Origin: Escherichia phage AV109
Sequence record: OR352939.1
Length of the DNA: 64,000 bases
Strand: one strand, 5' to 3'
The notes under the pieces were generated by a model that was not told the origin of the DNA, did no database searches, and saw only the letters and a list, made by a program, of their open reading frames with translations. Positions 1 to 26,891 of the stretch are shown in pieces; the stretch's first letter is position 1, and each line of letters opens with the position of its first letter. The position numbers and the translations under genes were made by a program.

Positions 1-488
1 CATATGTTACCTTAAATATTAATAGTGGGGTTCATGTATTAGGTCGGGGAGGAAATGGCGGAAGTAACTCTGCTGGCGGAGCAGGAGGAACTGCAATAAA
101 TAACGGAATTGGAACTCGTTTAAGAATAAACAATAATGGTATTATTGGTGGCGGCGGAGGTGGCGGCGCTGGTGCTAGATACCATCCTTTCCCTCAAATG
201 GATATGATATTTGGTGGCGGCGGAGGTCGTCCATTTGGCGCAGCTGGCGCAGCAGGAGGTGGCGCAGCGGCAGCATCCGCTGGTACAATTTCTGCTCCTG
301 GTAAAGGTACTGTTTCTGGGGTTCACTATGGAGGAAATGGTGGAGATTTGGGAGCTGCTGGCAAATCTTCATATATTCAAGGTGGTACTGGAGGAACTGT
401 TCACTCGGGTGGTGCAGCAGGTAAAGCTGTTACTGGTAATGCTCCAACTTGGACTAAAGTTGGTACAATATACGGTTCAAGAGTATAA
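1..488 (+). CDS. 38: Tail-fibre adhesin gp38-like protein, C-terminal fragment (5' end lies outside window)
   Basis: Open in frame from window start to TAA 486-488; poly-Gly blocks (GGGGGGAGA, FGGGGGRPFGAAGAAGGG, GGTGGTVHSGGAAG) resemble glycine-rich motifs of T2/T6-type gp38 adhesins; immediately followed by holin t as in T-even phages. Confidence 0.55.
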   Translation, partial: YVTLNINSGVHVLGRGGNGGSNSAGGAGGTAINNGIGTRLRINNNGIIGGGGGGGAGARYHPFPQMDMIFGGGGGRPFGAAGAAGGGAAAASAGTISAPGKGTVSGVHYGGNGGDLGAAGKSSYIQGGTGGTVHSGGAAGKAVTGNAPTWTKVGTIYGSRV

Positions 489-519: not shown

Positions 520-1179
520 ATGGCAACACCAAAAGTGGCATTTTCACCTAGTGATATTCTATTTGGGTTGCTAGATCGTATTTTCAAAGATAACGCTACT
601 GGAAAGGTTTTAATGTCCCGAGTAGCGGTAATTATTCTTTTGTTCCTAATGGCACTAATATGGTACAAAGGAAGTATTTTGCTGGATTATTATGTAAGAG
701 CTAAGTATGATACTTATACTGAAATAATCCAAAAAGAACGAGCTTTACGTTTTGAATCTGCGGCTCTAGAACAACTGCAAATAGTTCATATCTCATCTGG
801 TGCAGATTTTAGTGCTGTGTATTCTTTCAGACCTAAAAACTTAAATTATTTTGTCGACCTTATAGCTTATGAAGGCAAACTACCTAGCACAATTTCTGAA
901 AAGTCCCTTGGCGGATTCCCGGTGGATAAAACGGCCAATGAATATATAATTCATTTAAGTGGCCGTCATTTCTCATCTAAATCAGAATTTGCATTTTTGC
1001 CTACAAAATCTAAGACTGCCGAACTTTCTTATATGTATAGTTGTCCATACTTTAATTTGGATAACATCTATGCTGGAACTGTGACGATGTATTGGTATAA
1101 GGGGAGTAATATACTTGAGGAAGATCGCTTAGCGGCTATATGCAACCAAGCGATCCGAATACTAGGAAGGGCTAAATAA
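520..1179 (+). CDS. t: Holin T (lysis timing protein)
   Basis: 219 aa; near-identical in recalled blocks to T4 holin T (FSPSDILFG..DRLFKDNATGKVL.SRVAV, YMYSCPYFNLDNIYAG); AGGAGG RBS 8 nt upstream. Confidence 0.92.
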   Translation: MATPKVAFSPSDILFGLLDRIFKDNATGKVLMSRVAVIILLFLMALIWYKGSILLDYYVRAKYDTYTEIIQKERALRFESAALEQLQIVHISSGADFSAVYSFRPKNLNYFVDLIAYEGKLPSTISEKSLGGFPVDKTANEYIIHLSGRHFSSKSEFAFLPTKSKTAELSYMYSCPYFNLDNIYAGTVTMYWYKGSNILEEDRLAAICNQAIRILGRAK

Positions 1180-1452
1180 TTAGTTGTTAGAATACATCGC
1201 TAAATGACGATAAATATTTTCAAAACCTTCATTGAATTCACTAATCAGTGTTTTCTTTTCTTCGGCAGTTAAATTTGTAATTAGTTTTCTGAACGAATTC
1301 TGATTTAACTGCCGACCATCTTTTTTAATTCCAATCTCATTCAAGAATCCGATGAAACTTGCTCGGTCTTCAACAATATCTTCCCTAGAGAATTTAATCA
1401 AAATAGAAGCAATAGTAATAATTTCACGTACGATTTCAATGTCTTTATTCAT
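1180..1452 (-). CDS. asiA: Anti-sigma70 factor AsiA
   Basis: 90 aa; matches T4 AsiA along its length (REIIT.ASILIKFSREDIVE, FLNEIG, LNQNSFRK, EFNEGFE). Confidence 0.9.
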   Translation of the reverse strand: MNKDIEIVREIITIASILIKFSREDIVEDRASFIGFLNEIGIKKDGRQLNQNSFRKLITNLTAEEKKTLISEFNEGFENIYRHLAMYSNN

Positions 1453-13339: not shown

Positions 13340-15162
13340 TCTTTACGGAGTTCAGGGTCGTTACCCATGAGCATTTCAAATAGTTCTTTCCAATTTTCAG
13401 GAAGTTTAACTACGTCGTACACAGGGTTTTGAATCATTTCTTTATATTCATCCCGCTGAAGTGAGCCCAATCCCTTGATGTATCGAATACTATGCTTAGG
13501 CAGTGTATCTTTAACTTCTTCATACTCAGCTACAGTATAAAACCATTTTTGAGTTTTGCCAATTTGTGCAATAATTACAGGCGTTTTAACAAAGCGAATA
13601 CGTCCTTGTTCAAACAATTCAGGCCAATTACTAAAGAAAGCAAGCAAAGCCGGATAAATACTTCCAAGGCCGTCATGATCGGCATCGGTCATAATTGCAA
13701 TATTACGGTAGTTCGTATTCTCTGCCTTTTCACCAAGAATAAGACCCGTGATAGCACAGATATCAAAGAGCTCTTTGTTCTTCATCATATCGGCATATGA
13801 CATACCCCAGCTATTCATCACCTTACCACGTAATGGGAATCCGCCGTGTAGTTCACGGTCACGAACATCAATGAGATAACCAATTGCCGAATCACCTTCT
13901 GTTAAAAACAATGTCGTATCTGCATCTTTACCACATTGGTTAGCTTTAATATGCTTATGAACCTTAGCTTTAGTTGCCTTTTTAGCTGCTTTAGTTTCTG
14001 CAGCCTTTTCTGCTGCCAATTTACGAGCTAATGCGGCTTCAATTATAGGCATTAAAACTGCTTCAGAATTCAAAATATTTTTTGCCAATTTTTTTGTATC
14101 TAATTTAATATGCGTCCGAATTTCGCCATAAGGACTTGTTAAACGCTCTTTGGTTTGGGAATCAAAACGAAGGTTCTTCATTCCACGAACGAACATTAAG
14201 AGAGTGAGACATTCCTTGATTCGCGCTTTAGTCACGTCGATTTTATATTTGCGTTTAATAGCCGGAATTAATTCTTCGCTAATGTCGTCCATCACACATT
14301 CAATGTGATGACCACCGTTTTTGGTATGGATGTTATTCACATAAGTTAAATGACGGAAGCCATCTGGTGACCGTCCAATGGCAATAGAGCATCCGTCTTG
14401 TTCTTGAATGATGGTCTCTTCATCAAATTGTTTAGCAAACTTCTTAAAGTTACCTTGAATCTTTTTGCCATTAAATTTAAATTCAATACCAGGATAAACG
14501 ACCGCCAATGTTTGGAGCCGGTCTATAGTAATATCTTGGTATATTTTTTCAAATTGATTCATTTCAAAATGTGAGAAATCAGGAATAAACTCGACCTTAG
14601 TACCGTTGTTTTTAGACGGCTTAGATTTCCAAGAAATATTATCAGCGTTATTAGAACAATTAACGGTCAATTCATTTTTACCATCTGAAGTAGTGCCAAC
14701 AAAAGAGACAGAAAAAATATTTGTTAATGAAGAACCGACACCGTTTTGTCCACCCGTAACACGTTCTTTGTCGTCACCAAAGTTGCCACCGGCTTTTGTA
14801 CGTGTCCACGCCGCAACTGGTCCTGGAATTTCTTCTCCTTCAGGAGTAATAACTGTTTCTTGAGGAATACCTCGACCATTATCTTCAACAGTCACTTTAT
14901 TAGAATTTAAATCAATACTAACGGAAATTTTATTAGCATATTTGAAATTGGTTCGAATAGCTTCGTCTACTGAGTTGTCAATAATTTCATCAATTAATTT
15001 GAGAACACCTGCAACATATTTAACCTTTTTAAATTCACCGAATAGGAAACGTTCTTGTTCTTCATTGGCAACACTTCCAATATACATGCCAGGACGCTTC
15101 AAACAATGCTCTTTATCAGATAGCATTTCAATTTTATTATCAATCATTAGATTTTCTCTCAA
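13324..15162 (-). CDS. 39: DNA topoisomerase II large subunit gp39 (GyrB-like), unsplit 39+60
   Basis: 612 aa continuous ORF with GyrB-type ATPase N-terminus (HCLKRPGMYIGS, DNGRGIP) and TOPRIM region; no separate gene 60 or bypass gap. Confidence 0.9.
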   Translation of the reverse strand: MRENLMIDNKIEMLSDKEHCLKRPGMYIGSVANEEQERFLFGEFKKVKYVAGVLKLIDEIIDNSVDEAIRTNFKYANKISVSIDLNSNKVTVEDNGRGIPQETVITPEGEEIPGPVAAWTRTKAGGNFGDDKERVTGGQNGVGSSLTNIFSVSFVGTTSDGKNELTVNCSNNADNISWKSKPSKNNGTKVEFIPDFSHFEMNQFEKIYQDITIDRLQTLAVVYPGIEFKFNGKKIQGNFKKFAKQFDEETIIQEQDGCSIAIGRSPDGFRHLTYVNNIHTKNGGHHIECVMDDISEELIPAIKRKYKIDVTKARIKECLTLLMFVRGMKNLRFDSQTKERLTSPYGEIRTHIKLDTKKLAKNILNSEAVLMPIIEAALARKLAAEKAAETKAAKKATKAKVHKHIKANQCGKDADTTLFLTEGDSAIGYLIDVRDRELHGGFPLRGKVMNSWGMSYADMMKNKELFDICAITGLILGEKAENTNYRNIAIMTDADHDGLGSIYPALLAFFSNWPELFEQGRIRFVKTPVIIAQIGKTQKWFYTVAEYEEVKDTLPKHSIRYIKGLGSLQRDEYKEMIQNPVYDVVKLPENWKELFEMLMGNDPELRKDWMLG

Positions 15163-17722: not shown

Positions 17723-17752
17723 TATAATATCAAAACCAAAGGAGAAGTAAAC
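17723..17752 (-). promoter_or_regulatory. T4 early-type promoter (GTTTAC-N17/18-TAtTAT)
   Basis: tataat 17723-17728 and gtaaac 17747-17752 on plus strand. Confidence 0.45.
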
Positions 17753-17756
17753 AATT

Positions 17757-18176
17757 TTATGCGAAAGCAGCTGGGCTATATTTTTTAATTTGGAATTCAG
17801 GAACTACCATGAACTGACCAGCGAAAACGATGTTATAAAGCTTAATACCGTCTTCTACCCAACGGTCGCTAATAAATCCGGCGATTTGCTTAGTTTTCCA
17901 CGGTGTTCCATCAGTTGCCGCAGCAATAGTGAATTCATGGTCTTTTTCAACAGAAACTGATCTGCATAGTCCCCATTTGAACGCTTTTTCTTCCGGTTCA
18001 ATGAATTGGCTTTTAACGTAACCAATGTTACCATCGGCGTCACGAACTTTAACTTCGTTACGTCCAAAAACCGGATCACTCACAGAAAGAACTTCAACCA
18101 ACTTCCCGGCAACTTTAGAGCGAGAAGCAACAGATACATATACGTAATCACCTGTAGAGAGATTTACAATATTCAT
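17757..18176 (-). CDS. Hypothetical protein, paralogue of 18186..18650
   Basis: 139 aa; shares VSVASRSKVAGKLVEV and FISDRWVEDG.KLYNIVF blocks with neighbour. Confidence 0.5.
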   Translation of the reverse strand: MNIVNLSTGDYVYVSVASRSKVAGKLVEVLSVSDPVFGRNEVKVRDADGNIGYVKSQFIEPEEKAFKWGLCRSVSVEKDHEFTIAAATDGTPWKTKQIAGFISDRWVEDGIKLYNIVFAGQFMVVPEFQIKKYSPAAFA

Positions 18177-25063: not shown

Positions 25064-25585
25064 TCAGTAACCATTATCCTGACGTTCAAAGTTGTGTTGG
25101 TTTTTCAAGTAGTAAAGTTTAAAGATTTCTTCAGCGGAAAGACCCAAACCTTGGAACATATTCAGAACAAAGTGGAGAATATCAATCATCTCGAATTTAA
25201 TTTCAAGCTGGTCTTCAGGAGACAGTTCATCGATACGACGATTACGATATTCAGCATGTTGTGCTTTCCATGGCTTCCACACAGAGCTGGCAGCTTTTTC
25301 ACCGTTGGACATACCACCGAGTGAAGTCAGCAGTTCACGGAATTCATCATCAATATAATCTTTCTGATTACGCAGCCAATCAACAACATCACCGGCAGTA
25401 GCCAATTCATCAGGATGTTTGTTATGTTCAGGCTTGTCATTTGCCAGACGAACCTGTAAAGATTTCTGCATATCAAGCATTACCTGCAGTGGGTCTTTAT
25501 CTTCGTGAATCAGAGCATTAAAATAAGCTTCTTCTGCTTTATCAACACCAGAAATAAGTTGTGAACATTCGTTAAAGTGTGCCAT
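25064..25585 (-). CDS. 56: dCTPase/dCTP pyrophosphatase gp56
   Basis: Start at ATG 25585 (MAHFNEC) with AAGGAA RBS; 173 aa, close to T4 gp56 size; position between soc and 61. Confidence 0.8.
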   Translation of the reverse strand: MAHFNECSQLISGVDKAEEAYFNALIHEDKDPLQVMLDMQKSLQVRLANDKPEHNKHPDELATAGDVVDWLRNQKDYIDDEFRELLTSLGGMSNGEKAASSVWKPWKAQHAEYRNRRIDELSPEDQLEIKFEMIDILHFVLNMFQGLGLSAEEIFKLYYLKNQHNFERQDNGY

Positions 25586-25674
25586 TATTTTTCCTTTCAA
25601 TTCAGTATAAGAGAGTTAATTCTAACATTAATTTTATAAAGCGTAATAAATAATAAGGTAACTAAGGAGATATT

Positions 25675-25872
25675 ATGTTTAAACTTCCATCGTTAATCAA
25701 CGCTATTAAAGGCAATAAAAAGAAAACTGCTATCGCTGCAATAGTTGTAGGTGGCATTATTTCATGGAACTTCGGGATTGCACCATTGTTAGTTGCCAAT
25801 GGTATTATAGTTCCTTCTGTTCCATTGGATACTGTAGTTGATTTGGCCTTTGCTATTATAGGGCTTGTTTAA
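25675..25872 (+). CDS. Small hydrophobic protein (65 aa) on the plus strand
   Basis: ATG 25675 preceded by AAGGAG RBS (ctaaggagatattATG); two predicted hydrophobic segments; lies between gene 56 and gene 61, ending where gene 61 ends. Confidence 0.45.
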   Translation: MFKLPSLINAIKGNKKKTAIAAIVVGGIISWNFGIAPLLVANGIIVPSVPLDTVVDLAFAIIGLV

Positions 25873-26891
25873 ATCTTCGAATAACGAGATAATCTCATTT
25901 TAGCATGCAACCCACTTGAAATATTCTGTTTCATATATTCTAAAATTTCTTGTGGTGTTGCATTTTCTTTCATTACCATATCATTCACATCCTTTGAACT
26001 CCATGGAGCTCGGTCCCAGAACATGACACGTTCGCCTGCATCAACTAATCGCTTCATACGAGCTATAGTATCCGGATGCCTAGGTTCATTATCCATTACC
26101 CATACCCGGCGTTCTTTAAATGGTACCACATCTAAATCTATTGAGCCGCCTGTAATAGCGATTGCATTGGGTATGAATAAACTATCAATAGGACCTTCCA
26201 TTACCCAGACGTCCCCTTCCTTAACACGTTCAACACCATAAATTTTTGTTGCAGACTCAAACGCTTTAATAGTGATATATTTCTGAGGAGCATCTTTACG
26301 AAGTGCACGTCCTTGGAATGACTCGGCCTTCCCATCTTTATTAAAAATAGGAATCACTAAACGCGGTTCAGGAATCTCTTTCTTATACGTACCTGGTTGA
26401 ATCTTGTTGACCAATTTAGGCCATTCTAATGTGAACCATAATCTGTTCCATGATTCTTTAGGAATGCATCGAGACTTAACATATTTCACAATAGGATGCT
26501 CTTCAGGCAACTTGTCCAGACGAGAACAAGACGGCAAAGAATTTATAGTCTTTTTCTCTGGCTCCGGCTTAGCTTCAGGAACCTTTTCAATCTTTGGTTC
26601 CATTCTAGCTTTTTCTTTACGAACTTCCATTAGATATTCGCGATAAAGCTCTTCATCATACTCTTTTAAGTATCCGGAAATTGTATTGTGGTATTGACAG
26701 TTATAGCAATGTACATTACCAGGAGTACCGCCATAATACCAACCGCGAGCTTTCATTGCATCTGTCTGAGAGTCGCCACAAACTGGACATCGAAATGTTA
26801 ATTTAAATGTGCTTGAATTATTGATTTGTCTAAAACGAGGTAGGTGAGAAAACGCACGATAAGCAAATTCATTATCTATCCATTCAGCCAT
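25869..26891 (-). CDS. 61: DNA primase gp61
   Basis: 340 aa; N-terminal zinc ribbon (CPVCGDS...CYNCQYH) and TOPRIM region; size as T4 gp61. Confidence 0.88.
   Translation of the reverse strand: MAEWIDNEFAYRAFSHLPRFRQINNSSTFKLTFRCPVCGDSQTDAMKARGWYYGGTPGNVHCYNCQYHNTISGYLKEYDEELYREYLMEVRKEKARMEPKIEKVPEAKPEPEKKTINSLPSCSRLDKLPEEHPIVKYVKSRCIPKESWNRLWFTLEWPKLVNKIQPGTYKKEIPEPRLVIPIFNKDGKAESFQGRALRKDAPQKYITIKAFESATKIYGVERVKEGDVWVMEGPIDSLFIPNAIAITGGSIDLDVVPFKERRVWVMDNEPRHPDTIARMKRLVDAGERVMFWDRAPWSSKDVNDMVMKENATPQEILEYMKQNISSGLHAKMRLSRYSKI

Follow-up and report, generated by a model that had tools for sequence, protein, structure and literature searches.

What does the small open reading frame (ORF) that stands alone on the plus strand between genes 56 and 61 of a T4-type phage encode, and what might its product do? 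We addressed this question in a 64-kb stretch (hereafter, the window) from the early region of Escherichia phage AV109 (OR352939.1), a Mosigvirus of the RB69/JS09 group. The ORF encodes a protein of 65 amino acids (aa), MFKLPSLINAIKGNKKKTAIAAIVVGGIISWNFGIAPLLVANGIIVPSVPLDTVVDLAFAIIGLV, and the coordinates of the features discussed are collected in Table 1. An earlier note on this DNA had described a 65-aa hydrophobic ORF with an AAGGAG ribosome-binding site in the 56-61 interval, converging on gene 61, and the coordinates, the flanking genes and a grand average of hydropathy of 1.24 agree with that description. Its placement at 25601-25872 was right at the end, but the start took in upstream intergenic sequence, the ORF beginning at 25675. 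In our overall reading, for which we see about an even chance, the product is a late, holin-related accessory membrane protein with its own gp55-type promoter. The existing annotation of the gene, the late-promoter box and the holin resemblance had gone unmentioned in the earlier note; what is new here is the assignment of a late promoter and the link to the membrane module of PF11351 holins.

The gene itself is already known, as RB69ORF029w, as "dam.1" of the T4T record and as phrog_2024, and is annotated as hypothetical in hundreds of genomes. Along its whole length (residues 1-65 on positions 1-65 of 65; E 1.4e-26), the window protein matched the profile of phrog_2024, a family of unassigned function, and the same profile was matched by 18 of 18 aligned relatives. 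This was the only match in the PHROGs scan, and scans of the window protein against Pfam and NCBIfam gave no family. JS09_0153 is identical to the window protein (100% aa identity) and its record notes similarity to RB69ORF029w, while in AV115 and many other records the ORF is labelled "hypothetical protein". The T4 homologue, with 52% aa identity, is called "dam.1" in the T4T record, where it lies between dam and 61, and bears the UniProt name "Uncharacterized protein dam.1". Nothing of substance distinguishes the ORF from these entries, and we regard them as the same gene. The T4 RefSeq record NC_000866.4 holds the homologue intact at 17738-17938 (+) in an unannotated interval; those of JS98 (RefSeq) and PEi20 are likewise intact yet unannotated (1474-1674 of retrieved locus L018 and 1420-1605 of L019, respectively). 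In the list of Nolan et al. (2006), RB69ORF029w has no signal peptide and a predicted transmembrane (TM) segment at 21-41 (PMC1524935, Additional file 2). A literature search on "dam.1" and "RB69ORF029w" found no paper discussing the gene, and no T4 small-protein, ribosome-profiling or transcription-start data on the ORF. A T4 transcriptome and proteome study counted reads only on NC_000866.4 features; because that annotation lacks the ORF, the study could not report it.

The pattern of conservation is that of a protein-coding gene. When the window protein was used as the tblastn query (E up to 10, weak matches included), 734 phage records were matched, and in 690 the match covered at least 80% of the query. 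Close relatives are similar at the DNA level: over the 1,951 bases round the ORF, identity is 99.6% with Escherichia phage AV115 and about 97.5% with JS09 and HX01. When Mosigvirus was compared with Tequatrovirus by blastn in its "distant" mode, alignment was confined to the end of the interval next to gene 56 and did not include the ORF; because the proteins nevertheless share 52% of their residues, conservation is at the protein level. Differences at codon positions 1, 2 and 3 numbered [31,12,41] between the window and T4 and [16,10,41] between UPEC01b and JS98, the second position changing least and third positions being saturated. Between the window and JS09, six third-position differences and 0 amino-acid changes were observed. 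The ratio of nonsynonymous to synonymous substitution rates (dN/dS) was 0.11 for the window and T4, up to approximately 0.33 between genera at comparable distances, and approximately 0.5 for the most distant pairs. Furthermore, AGGAG or GGAGG is kept at the Shine-Dalgarno (SD) place before the first copy of the gene in all genera examined. Judging from these sequence data, the ORF is almost certainly a real protein-coding gene.

Its position is conserved as well. On the plus strand and adjoining gene 61 at its 3' end, the ORF was found in Mosig-, Tequatro-, Gapriver-, Dhaka-, Moon-, Gelderland-, Jiaoda- and Kanagawavirus and in a metagenomic T4-like contig. It is convergent with gene 61 in every T4-like genome examined, and in most genera the two stop codons overlap; in KpV477 an 18-nucleotide (nt) gap separates the genes. 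The other flank is variable, being occupied by gene 56, by dam or by small ORFs of no relation. T4 has dam between dam.1 and gene 56, whereas here gene 56 follows the ORF directly and the window lacks dam. Gaprivervirus UPEC01 carries two tandem paralogues (2001-2198 and 2207-2407 of retrieved locus L005), so that a second ORF lies between the first copy and gene 61; copy b is of the type that stands alone in Dhakavirus JS98. In PSD2001 (2001-2310 of L006) most of copy b is gone, apparently by deletion between GTGGAAC repeats. The comparison with T4 and its relatives at the 56-61 junction that the earlier note had proposed thus finds the ORF intact and in the same place in at least eight genera. 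The same note had also suggested a moron, that is, a recent acquisition, for which patchy presence, odd base composition and a terminator of its own would be expected. This candidate was ruled out by the synteny across at least eight Tevenvirinae genera, by a GC content of 36.4%, like the 36.7% of the window, and by the lack of a downstream terminator-like site. Because the same position is held in at least eight genera, with window-like GC content and under purifying selection, the gene is an old resident and not a recent add-on; by these comparisons it is ancient in the Tevenvirinae and is being maintained by purifying selection.

The family is small and its members are short. An exhaustive hidden Markov model (HMM) search of 1.84 billion representative proteins gave 16 clusters only, all of 45-70 aa, and no larger characterised relative among them; across genera the length ranges from 57 to 70 aa. 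A word-indexed protein search with a single query found close relatives only, and with the family alignment it found 57 proteins, all small and none with a Pfam domain. Single-protein scans of IMG/VR returned near-identical loci only, and Foldseek against viral models returned family members only.

We examined the sequence upstream of the ORF for signs of when it is expressed. Presence of TATAAATA or a variant of it was taken as the mark of a late gene, and AATAAATA, the same variant as that of holin t, was found 22 nt upstream of the ATG. The heptamer ATAAATA occurs 7 times in the window on both strands taken together, where approximately 41 occurrences are expected from base composition, a depletion of about 6-fold. 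Four octamers of the form [T/A]ATAAATA closely precede a gene start in the window. One is that of the ORF, and the others precede holin t, soc and gene 49 (Table 1), all of which are transcribed late in T4; in T4 itself, AATAAATA precedes gene 49. The box of the ORF thus resembles those of T4-type late genes with A at -13, such as holin t here and T4 gene 49, in which AATAAATA stands 18-22 nt ahead of an ATG that has its SD sequence. Of 50 listed T4 late promoters, 9 have A in place of T at -13, and T4 late transcripts run in either polarity (Geiduschek and Kassavetis, PMC2988020). Nolan et al., who included RB69 among the T4-like phages that they analysed, found A or T commonly at -13 in most of them (PMC1524935). 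Among the homologues, those of six genera have ATAAATA 14-23 nt upstream of the ATG and those of two have TTAAATA, in flanks that cannot be aligned. Since ATAAATA is depleted, the box is shared with late-type genes, A is accepted at -13 and the heptamer is kept before most homologues, we infer that a gp55-type late promoter probably drives the ORF and that its expression is late.

The heptamer is depleted in T4 also: in positions 1-50 kb, 11 copies were counted against approximately 43 expected (about 4-fold), and 5 of the 7 plus-strand copies were GATAAATA, which suggests that copies with G at -13 are tolerated because they are weak or inactive. Other plus-strand octamers in the window are AATAAATA at 95-102 and GATAAATA at 1209-1216 and 13653-13660, none of which has an evident SD-preceded start close by; these could be inactive, or could serve as antisense late promoters.

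The protein is predicted to be a single-TM inner-membrane protein with a near-invariant W-N...P...G...P motif. Its net charge is +5 over the N-terminal 20 residues and -2 over the C-terminal 25. AlphaFold2, run with a 9-sequence alignment, gave helices at residues 4-11, 15-41 and 51-62 with a mean predicted local distance difference test score of 77.9. W31, N32, P37, G43 and P47 are invariant in our alignments A1 and A2; among 18 diverse members P37 does not vary and the conservation of N32 is at least 90%. The positive-inside rule would place the N-terminus in the cytoplasm, and the C-terminal 24 residues are expected to be periplasmic or re-entrant.

Several comparisons pointed to holins of the family PF11351 (GTA_holin_3TM). 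Three relatives of the window protein gave matches of 13.6-15.3 bits, all on positions 66-117 of the 123 in the PF11351 model, one family member matched two PHROG holin families weakly, and the OE5505 homologue is named "Holin" in BFVD/UniProt, which is an annotation and not an experiment. A tblastn search from a distant member led to Pan1_96, an 81-aa protein of the same build that is a "GTA-like holin" by annotation only. Pan1_96 led in turn to five holins of 133-152 aa. Four of these, from ParMal1, ZRG1, MEP301 and ct3Oc712, adjoin annotated lysins, the other comes from Vibrio phage 1.208.B, and each one clearly belongs to PF11351 (E down to 2.6e-25). When the family alignment (A3) was compared with that of the five holins (A4) by hhalign, a probability of 83.9%, an E of 7.8e-6 and a score of 34.7 were obtained, with the TM helix, turn and tail of the family lying on holin columns 73-129. 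The pattern W-x-F-L-x-x-P ... G ... L-P-x-L ... G-L is common to the family and the holins. In 400 column shuffles of either alignment the mean score was 11-12 (standard deviation approximately 2) and the maximum 20.5, none coming near 34.7, and the reversed-sequence control scored 10-11. The T4-like members alone scored 30.2 against the holins (shuffle maximum 16.7), and the window protein, T4 and two close relatives alone scored 32.6. When a profile of the PF11351 type was run against the 941 six-frame segments of the window, the ORF came out on top with an E of 0.39, not significant alone, and no full-length PF11351 holin was found to be encoded in the window.

On this evidence the window protein is not a PF11351 member, and its resemblance to the membrane core of these holins goes beyond composition. 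A common origin with the PF11351 membrane module is, in our estimate, somewhat favoured. The likeness lies in a TM helix, a turn and a C-terminal hydrophobic helix at about positions 66-117, in small size and in probably late expression, and the ORF is carried by phages whose own holin (T) is of another family. In the RcGTA system, the endolysin-holin locus is needed for cell lysis and particle release, and PF11351 is named for this holin type (PMC5026251).

A second comparison is with lambda S107 and phage 21 S68/S71, which are truncated-holin antiholins or pinholin-type small membrane proteins. On our reading of the sequence, the ORF product shares with them a very small size, a probable relationship to holins and a TM helix rich in Gly, Ala, Ser and Thr. 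Unlike them, it is encoded at an independent locus and not by a dual start, and the window holds no full-length holin of the same family.

The course of events that we propose is as follows. Late in infection, gp55-RNA polymerase would start at the AATAAATA box, and the resulting short-leader mRNA would be translated efficiently from the strong SD sequence. The 65-residue protein would then insert N-in into the inner membrane, and these steps, up to membrane insertion, have support in the sequence. Once there, the protein might act as a holin-like accessory factor that modulates membrane permeabilisation or lysis timing, and it may self-associate through the buried Asn and the small-residue face of its helix. 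Because the ORF and gene 61 are not set apart by a terminator-like site, the same transcript probably reads through antisense into the primase mRNA, either as a by-product or as a secondary function. A role related to lysis is possible, in our judgement, though doubtful. A bolder form of this proposal is a "half-holin", an isolated PF11351-type membrane core that would be an unrecognised component of T4 lysis or lysis inhibition (a co-holin, an antiholin-like timer, or a depolarising trigger with holin T) and whose read-through would perhaps silence primase mRNA; this we consider rather unlikely.

A number of observations weigh against a late holin-related protein. By the Pfam threshold the membership fails, since the window protein gave no match and the relatives lie below the PF11351 gathering threshold of 24.8 bits; hhalign probabilities of 65-84% over approximately 50 mostly hydrophobic columns are suggestive and not proof. 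Compared with PF11351 holins of 133-152 aa, the 65-aa protein is without three parts: an N-terminal segment of approximately 70 residues, a long amphipathic helix and a basic tail at the C-terminus. It ends ...IIGLV, with no charged C-terminal domain. Its neighbours are the dCTPase and primase genes and not an endolysin gene, and T4-type phages already have a complete lysis gene set, with an unrelated holin (t) in the window. As for the putative promoter, the first base of its box varies among genera (A, G or C) and TTAAATA takes the place of the heptamer in two genera. The HMM scan of RB69 by Nolan et al. did not flag it, predicting no plus-strand late promoter near the position. The T4 box is GATAAATA, of which four more plus-strand copies without an apparent nearby start lie in the first 50 kb, and G at -13 may be inactive; Gaprivervirus and Kanagawavirus have C there. 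Finally, no clear lysis cassette or recognisable adjacent lysin was seen among the distant members examined (L020, L021, L022 and L030).

These distant members lie outside the T4-like phages. In two siphovirus-like contigs (L020, 3279-4752; L030, 3260-4749), a tail-tip gene is followed by a gene for a 94-98-aa protein, endonuclease VII, the family member, and genes for 179-aa and 105-aa proteins, and no lysin domain was detected in these blocks. In L030 a serine recombinase comes next, and the phage is therefore probably temperate; the block stands where temperate phages often keep their lysis genes. One distant member lies at a prophage end. Another, P0081 (129-308 of L021, a short metagenomic contig), is directly upstream of a gene for a 352-aa protein with a RelA_SpoT domain (325-1383), and the locus could represent a small-alarmone-synthetase module that has its partner in the membrane.

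Three other explanations of the ORF were weighed. It may be a real small membrane protein unrelated to lysis, acting in superinfection exclusion, in inhibition of a host membrane protein or defence, or in membrane anchoring, the holin likeness then reflecting shared helix-packing constraints or ancient domain reuse. The complete lysis gene set and holin t of these phages, the unmet Pfam threshold, the exclusion genes sp and imm nearby and the distant members, which are not in clear lysis cassettes and one of which precedes the RelA_SpoT-domain gene, all fit such a role. It sits less well with a similarity that falls at particular positions of a motif (W-x-F...P...G...LP...L-D/E...G-L) and scores above every one of 400 composition-matched shuffles, and the late-promoter-like box is a poor fit to exclusion because sp and imm are on the strand of early/middle polarity. 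We regard a role outside lysis as conceivable, with a distinctly less than even chance. The earlier note had raised an antisense action on primase expression, and the main function might indeed lie in the RNA, late plus-strand read-through acting as a cis-antisense that shuts off primase mRNA and the peptide being secondary. Convergence with gene 61 everywhere examined, the overlapping stops of most genera and the missing terminator-like site would suit this. What is conserved, however, is the protein and not the DNA (52% aa identity with no blastn match, saturated third positions, dN/dS of about 0.1); moreover, the 18-nt gap in KpV477 and the intervening second ORF in UPEC01 break the arrangement, and the plus-strand fold, computed for the window sequence (z = -3.0; 0 of 100 shuffles fold as well), gave no conserved element that could be interpreted. 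An antisense main function is, in our view, decidedly unlikely, and an antisense effect could exist as a by-product.

It could also be asked whether the ORF is a chance or mis-annotated one in a spacer that is really the promoter and origin region of gene 56, equivalent to T4 oriA. The ORF is short, AT-rich genomes give many spurious ORFs of at least 60 aa, the T4 RefSeq record does not annotate it, and a middle promoter of gene 56 occupies the same interval. Against this, frame, length (57-70 aa) and motif are kept across at least eight genera and in distant non-T4 phages, the substitutions are of the coding type, the SD sequence is conserved, and the promoter of gene 56 is outside the ORF, on its upstream side. 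The tblastn matches, the substitution pattern and the family recovered by the HMM search effectively refute a chance ORF, for which we see practically no room.

Table 1 Features of the 64-kb window and parts of the predicted protein.
Feature	Position	Strand	Remarks
65-aa ORF (RB69ORF029w / T4 dam.1 family, phrog_2024)	25675..25872	+	predicted small inner-membrane protein
SD sequence AAGGAG	25664..25669	+	5-nt spacer to ATG at 25675
AATAAATA, candidate gp55 late promoter (-13 to -6) of the 65-aa ORF	25645..25652	+	22 nt before ATG (25675); inferred transcript start ~25658
MotA-type middle promoter of gene 56, CGCTTTA N14 TAGAAT	25617..25644	-	abuts the late box back to back; annotated in phage SA35RD
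Gene 56, dCTPase	25064-25585	-	one flank of the ORF
Gene 61, primase	25869-26891	-	conserved convergent neighbour
TTAA, stop of the ORF (TAA, +) overlapping stop of gene 61 (TAA, -)	25869..25872		zero intergenic space
Holin t	520-1179	+	first gene of the window
Anti-sigma factor gene asiA	1180-1452	-	follows holin t; then tens of kb of minus-strand genes
AATAAATA of holin t	494	+	ATG at 520
TATAAATA of soc	25057	-	
TATAAATA of gene 49 (endonuclease VII)	58704	-	
Protein, basic part	residues 1-17		predicted cytoplasmic
Protein, TM helix	residues ~18-41		contains W31-N32 and P37
Protein, turn	G43/P47		
Protein, short hydrophobic helix	residues 51-62		

With regard to the surroundings, the ORF is the sole credible plus-strand gene of the window besides holin t. 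The earlier note had called it a lone plus-strand gene in a 25-kb run of minus-strand genes, and this was right because, holin t at the window start apart, all long ORFs that are not nested in a longer opposite-strand ORF are on the minus strand; the run is in fact longer than 25 kb. The exclusion genes sp and imm of the neighbourhood, which are membrane/periplasmic in nature, belong to that strand of early/middle polarity. The spacer upstream of the ORF on the gene 56 side is 89 base pairs long with a GC content of 21%, and it holds a divergent pair made up of the middle promoter and the candidate late promoter. A scan of the plus strand for sigma-70 promoters gave nothing convincing. In a scan for intrinsic terminators, none was found separating the ORF from gene 61, and the sole plus-strand hairpin sits inside the ORF. 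RNA folding of the minus strand was unremarkable (z = 0.12).

The tentative statement in the earlier note that T4 has oriA and possibly dam near this interval proved accurate: dam lies between gene 56 and the ORF homologue, and oriA at the 5' end of gene 56. The search for a dam homologue came to nothing, tblastn with T4 Dam giving no significant match in the interval or the whole 64-kb window (best E 1.9). The position equivalent to oriA (25560-25650) falls outside the ORF. The counterpart of the T4 oriA primer promoter is the gene 56 middle promoter and not the ORF, the equivalent T4 transcript being the one that primes oriA. At the same place, a stretch of approximately 40 nt (25565-25602), which comprises the SD sequence and first codons of gene 56 on the minus strand, shows 92-97% DNA identity in T4-like phages of Klebsiella, Serratia and Salmonella, and no blastn alignment with those phages was obtained over the rest of the 56-61 interval. 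The stretch, at a position equivalent to T4 oriA, may function in an origin or an R-loop, or may act as a translational operator.

No lytic phage has, to our knowledge, been studied better than T4, and its system for lysis and lysis inhibition (t, rI, rIII, e and the spanins) is considered fully catalogued. If a late holin-related role is correct, the ORF would be an overlooked and easily tested player, conserved throughout the T-even phages yet absent from the reference annotation of T4. Should the lysis role prove wrong, it still holds that a gene which is clearly real is missing from the annotations of T4 RefSeq, JS98 and PEi20, and existing T4 RNA-seq and proteomics data can be re-read for it. 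Furthermore, the strong depletion of ATAAATA offers a simple flag for late promoters in T4-like genomes.

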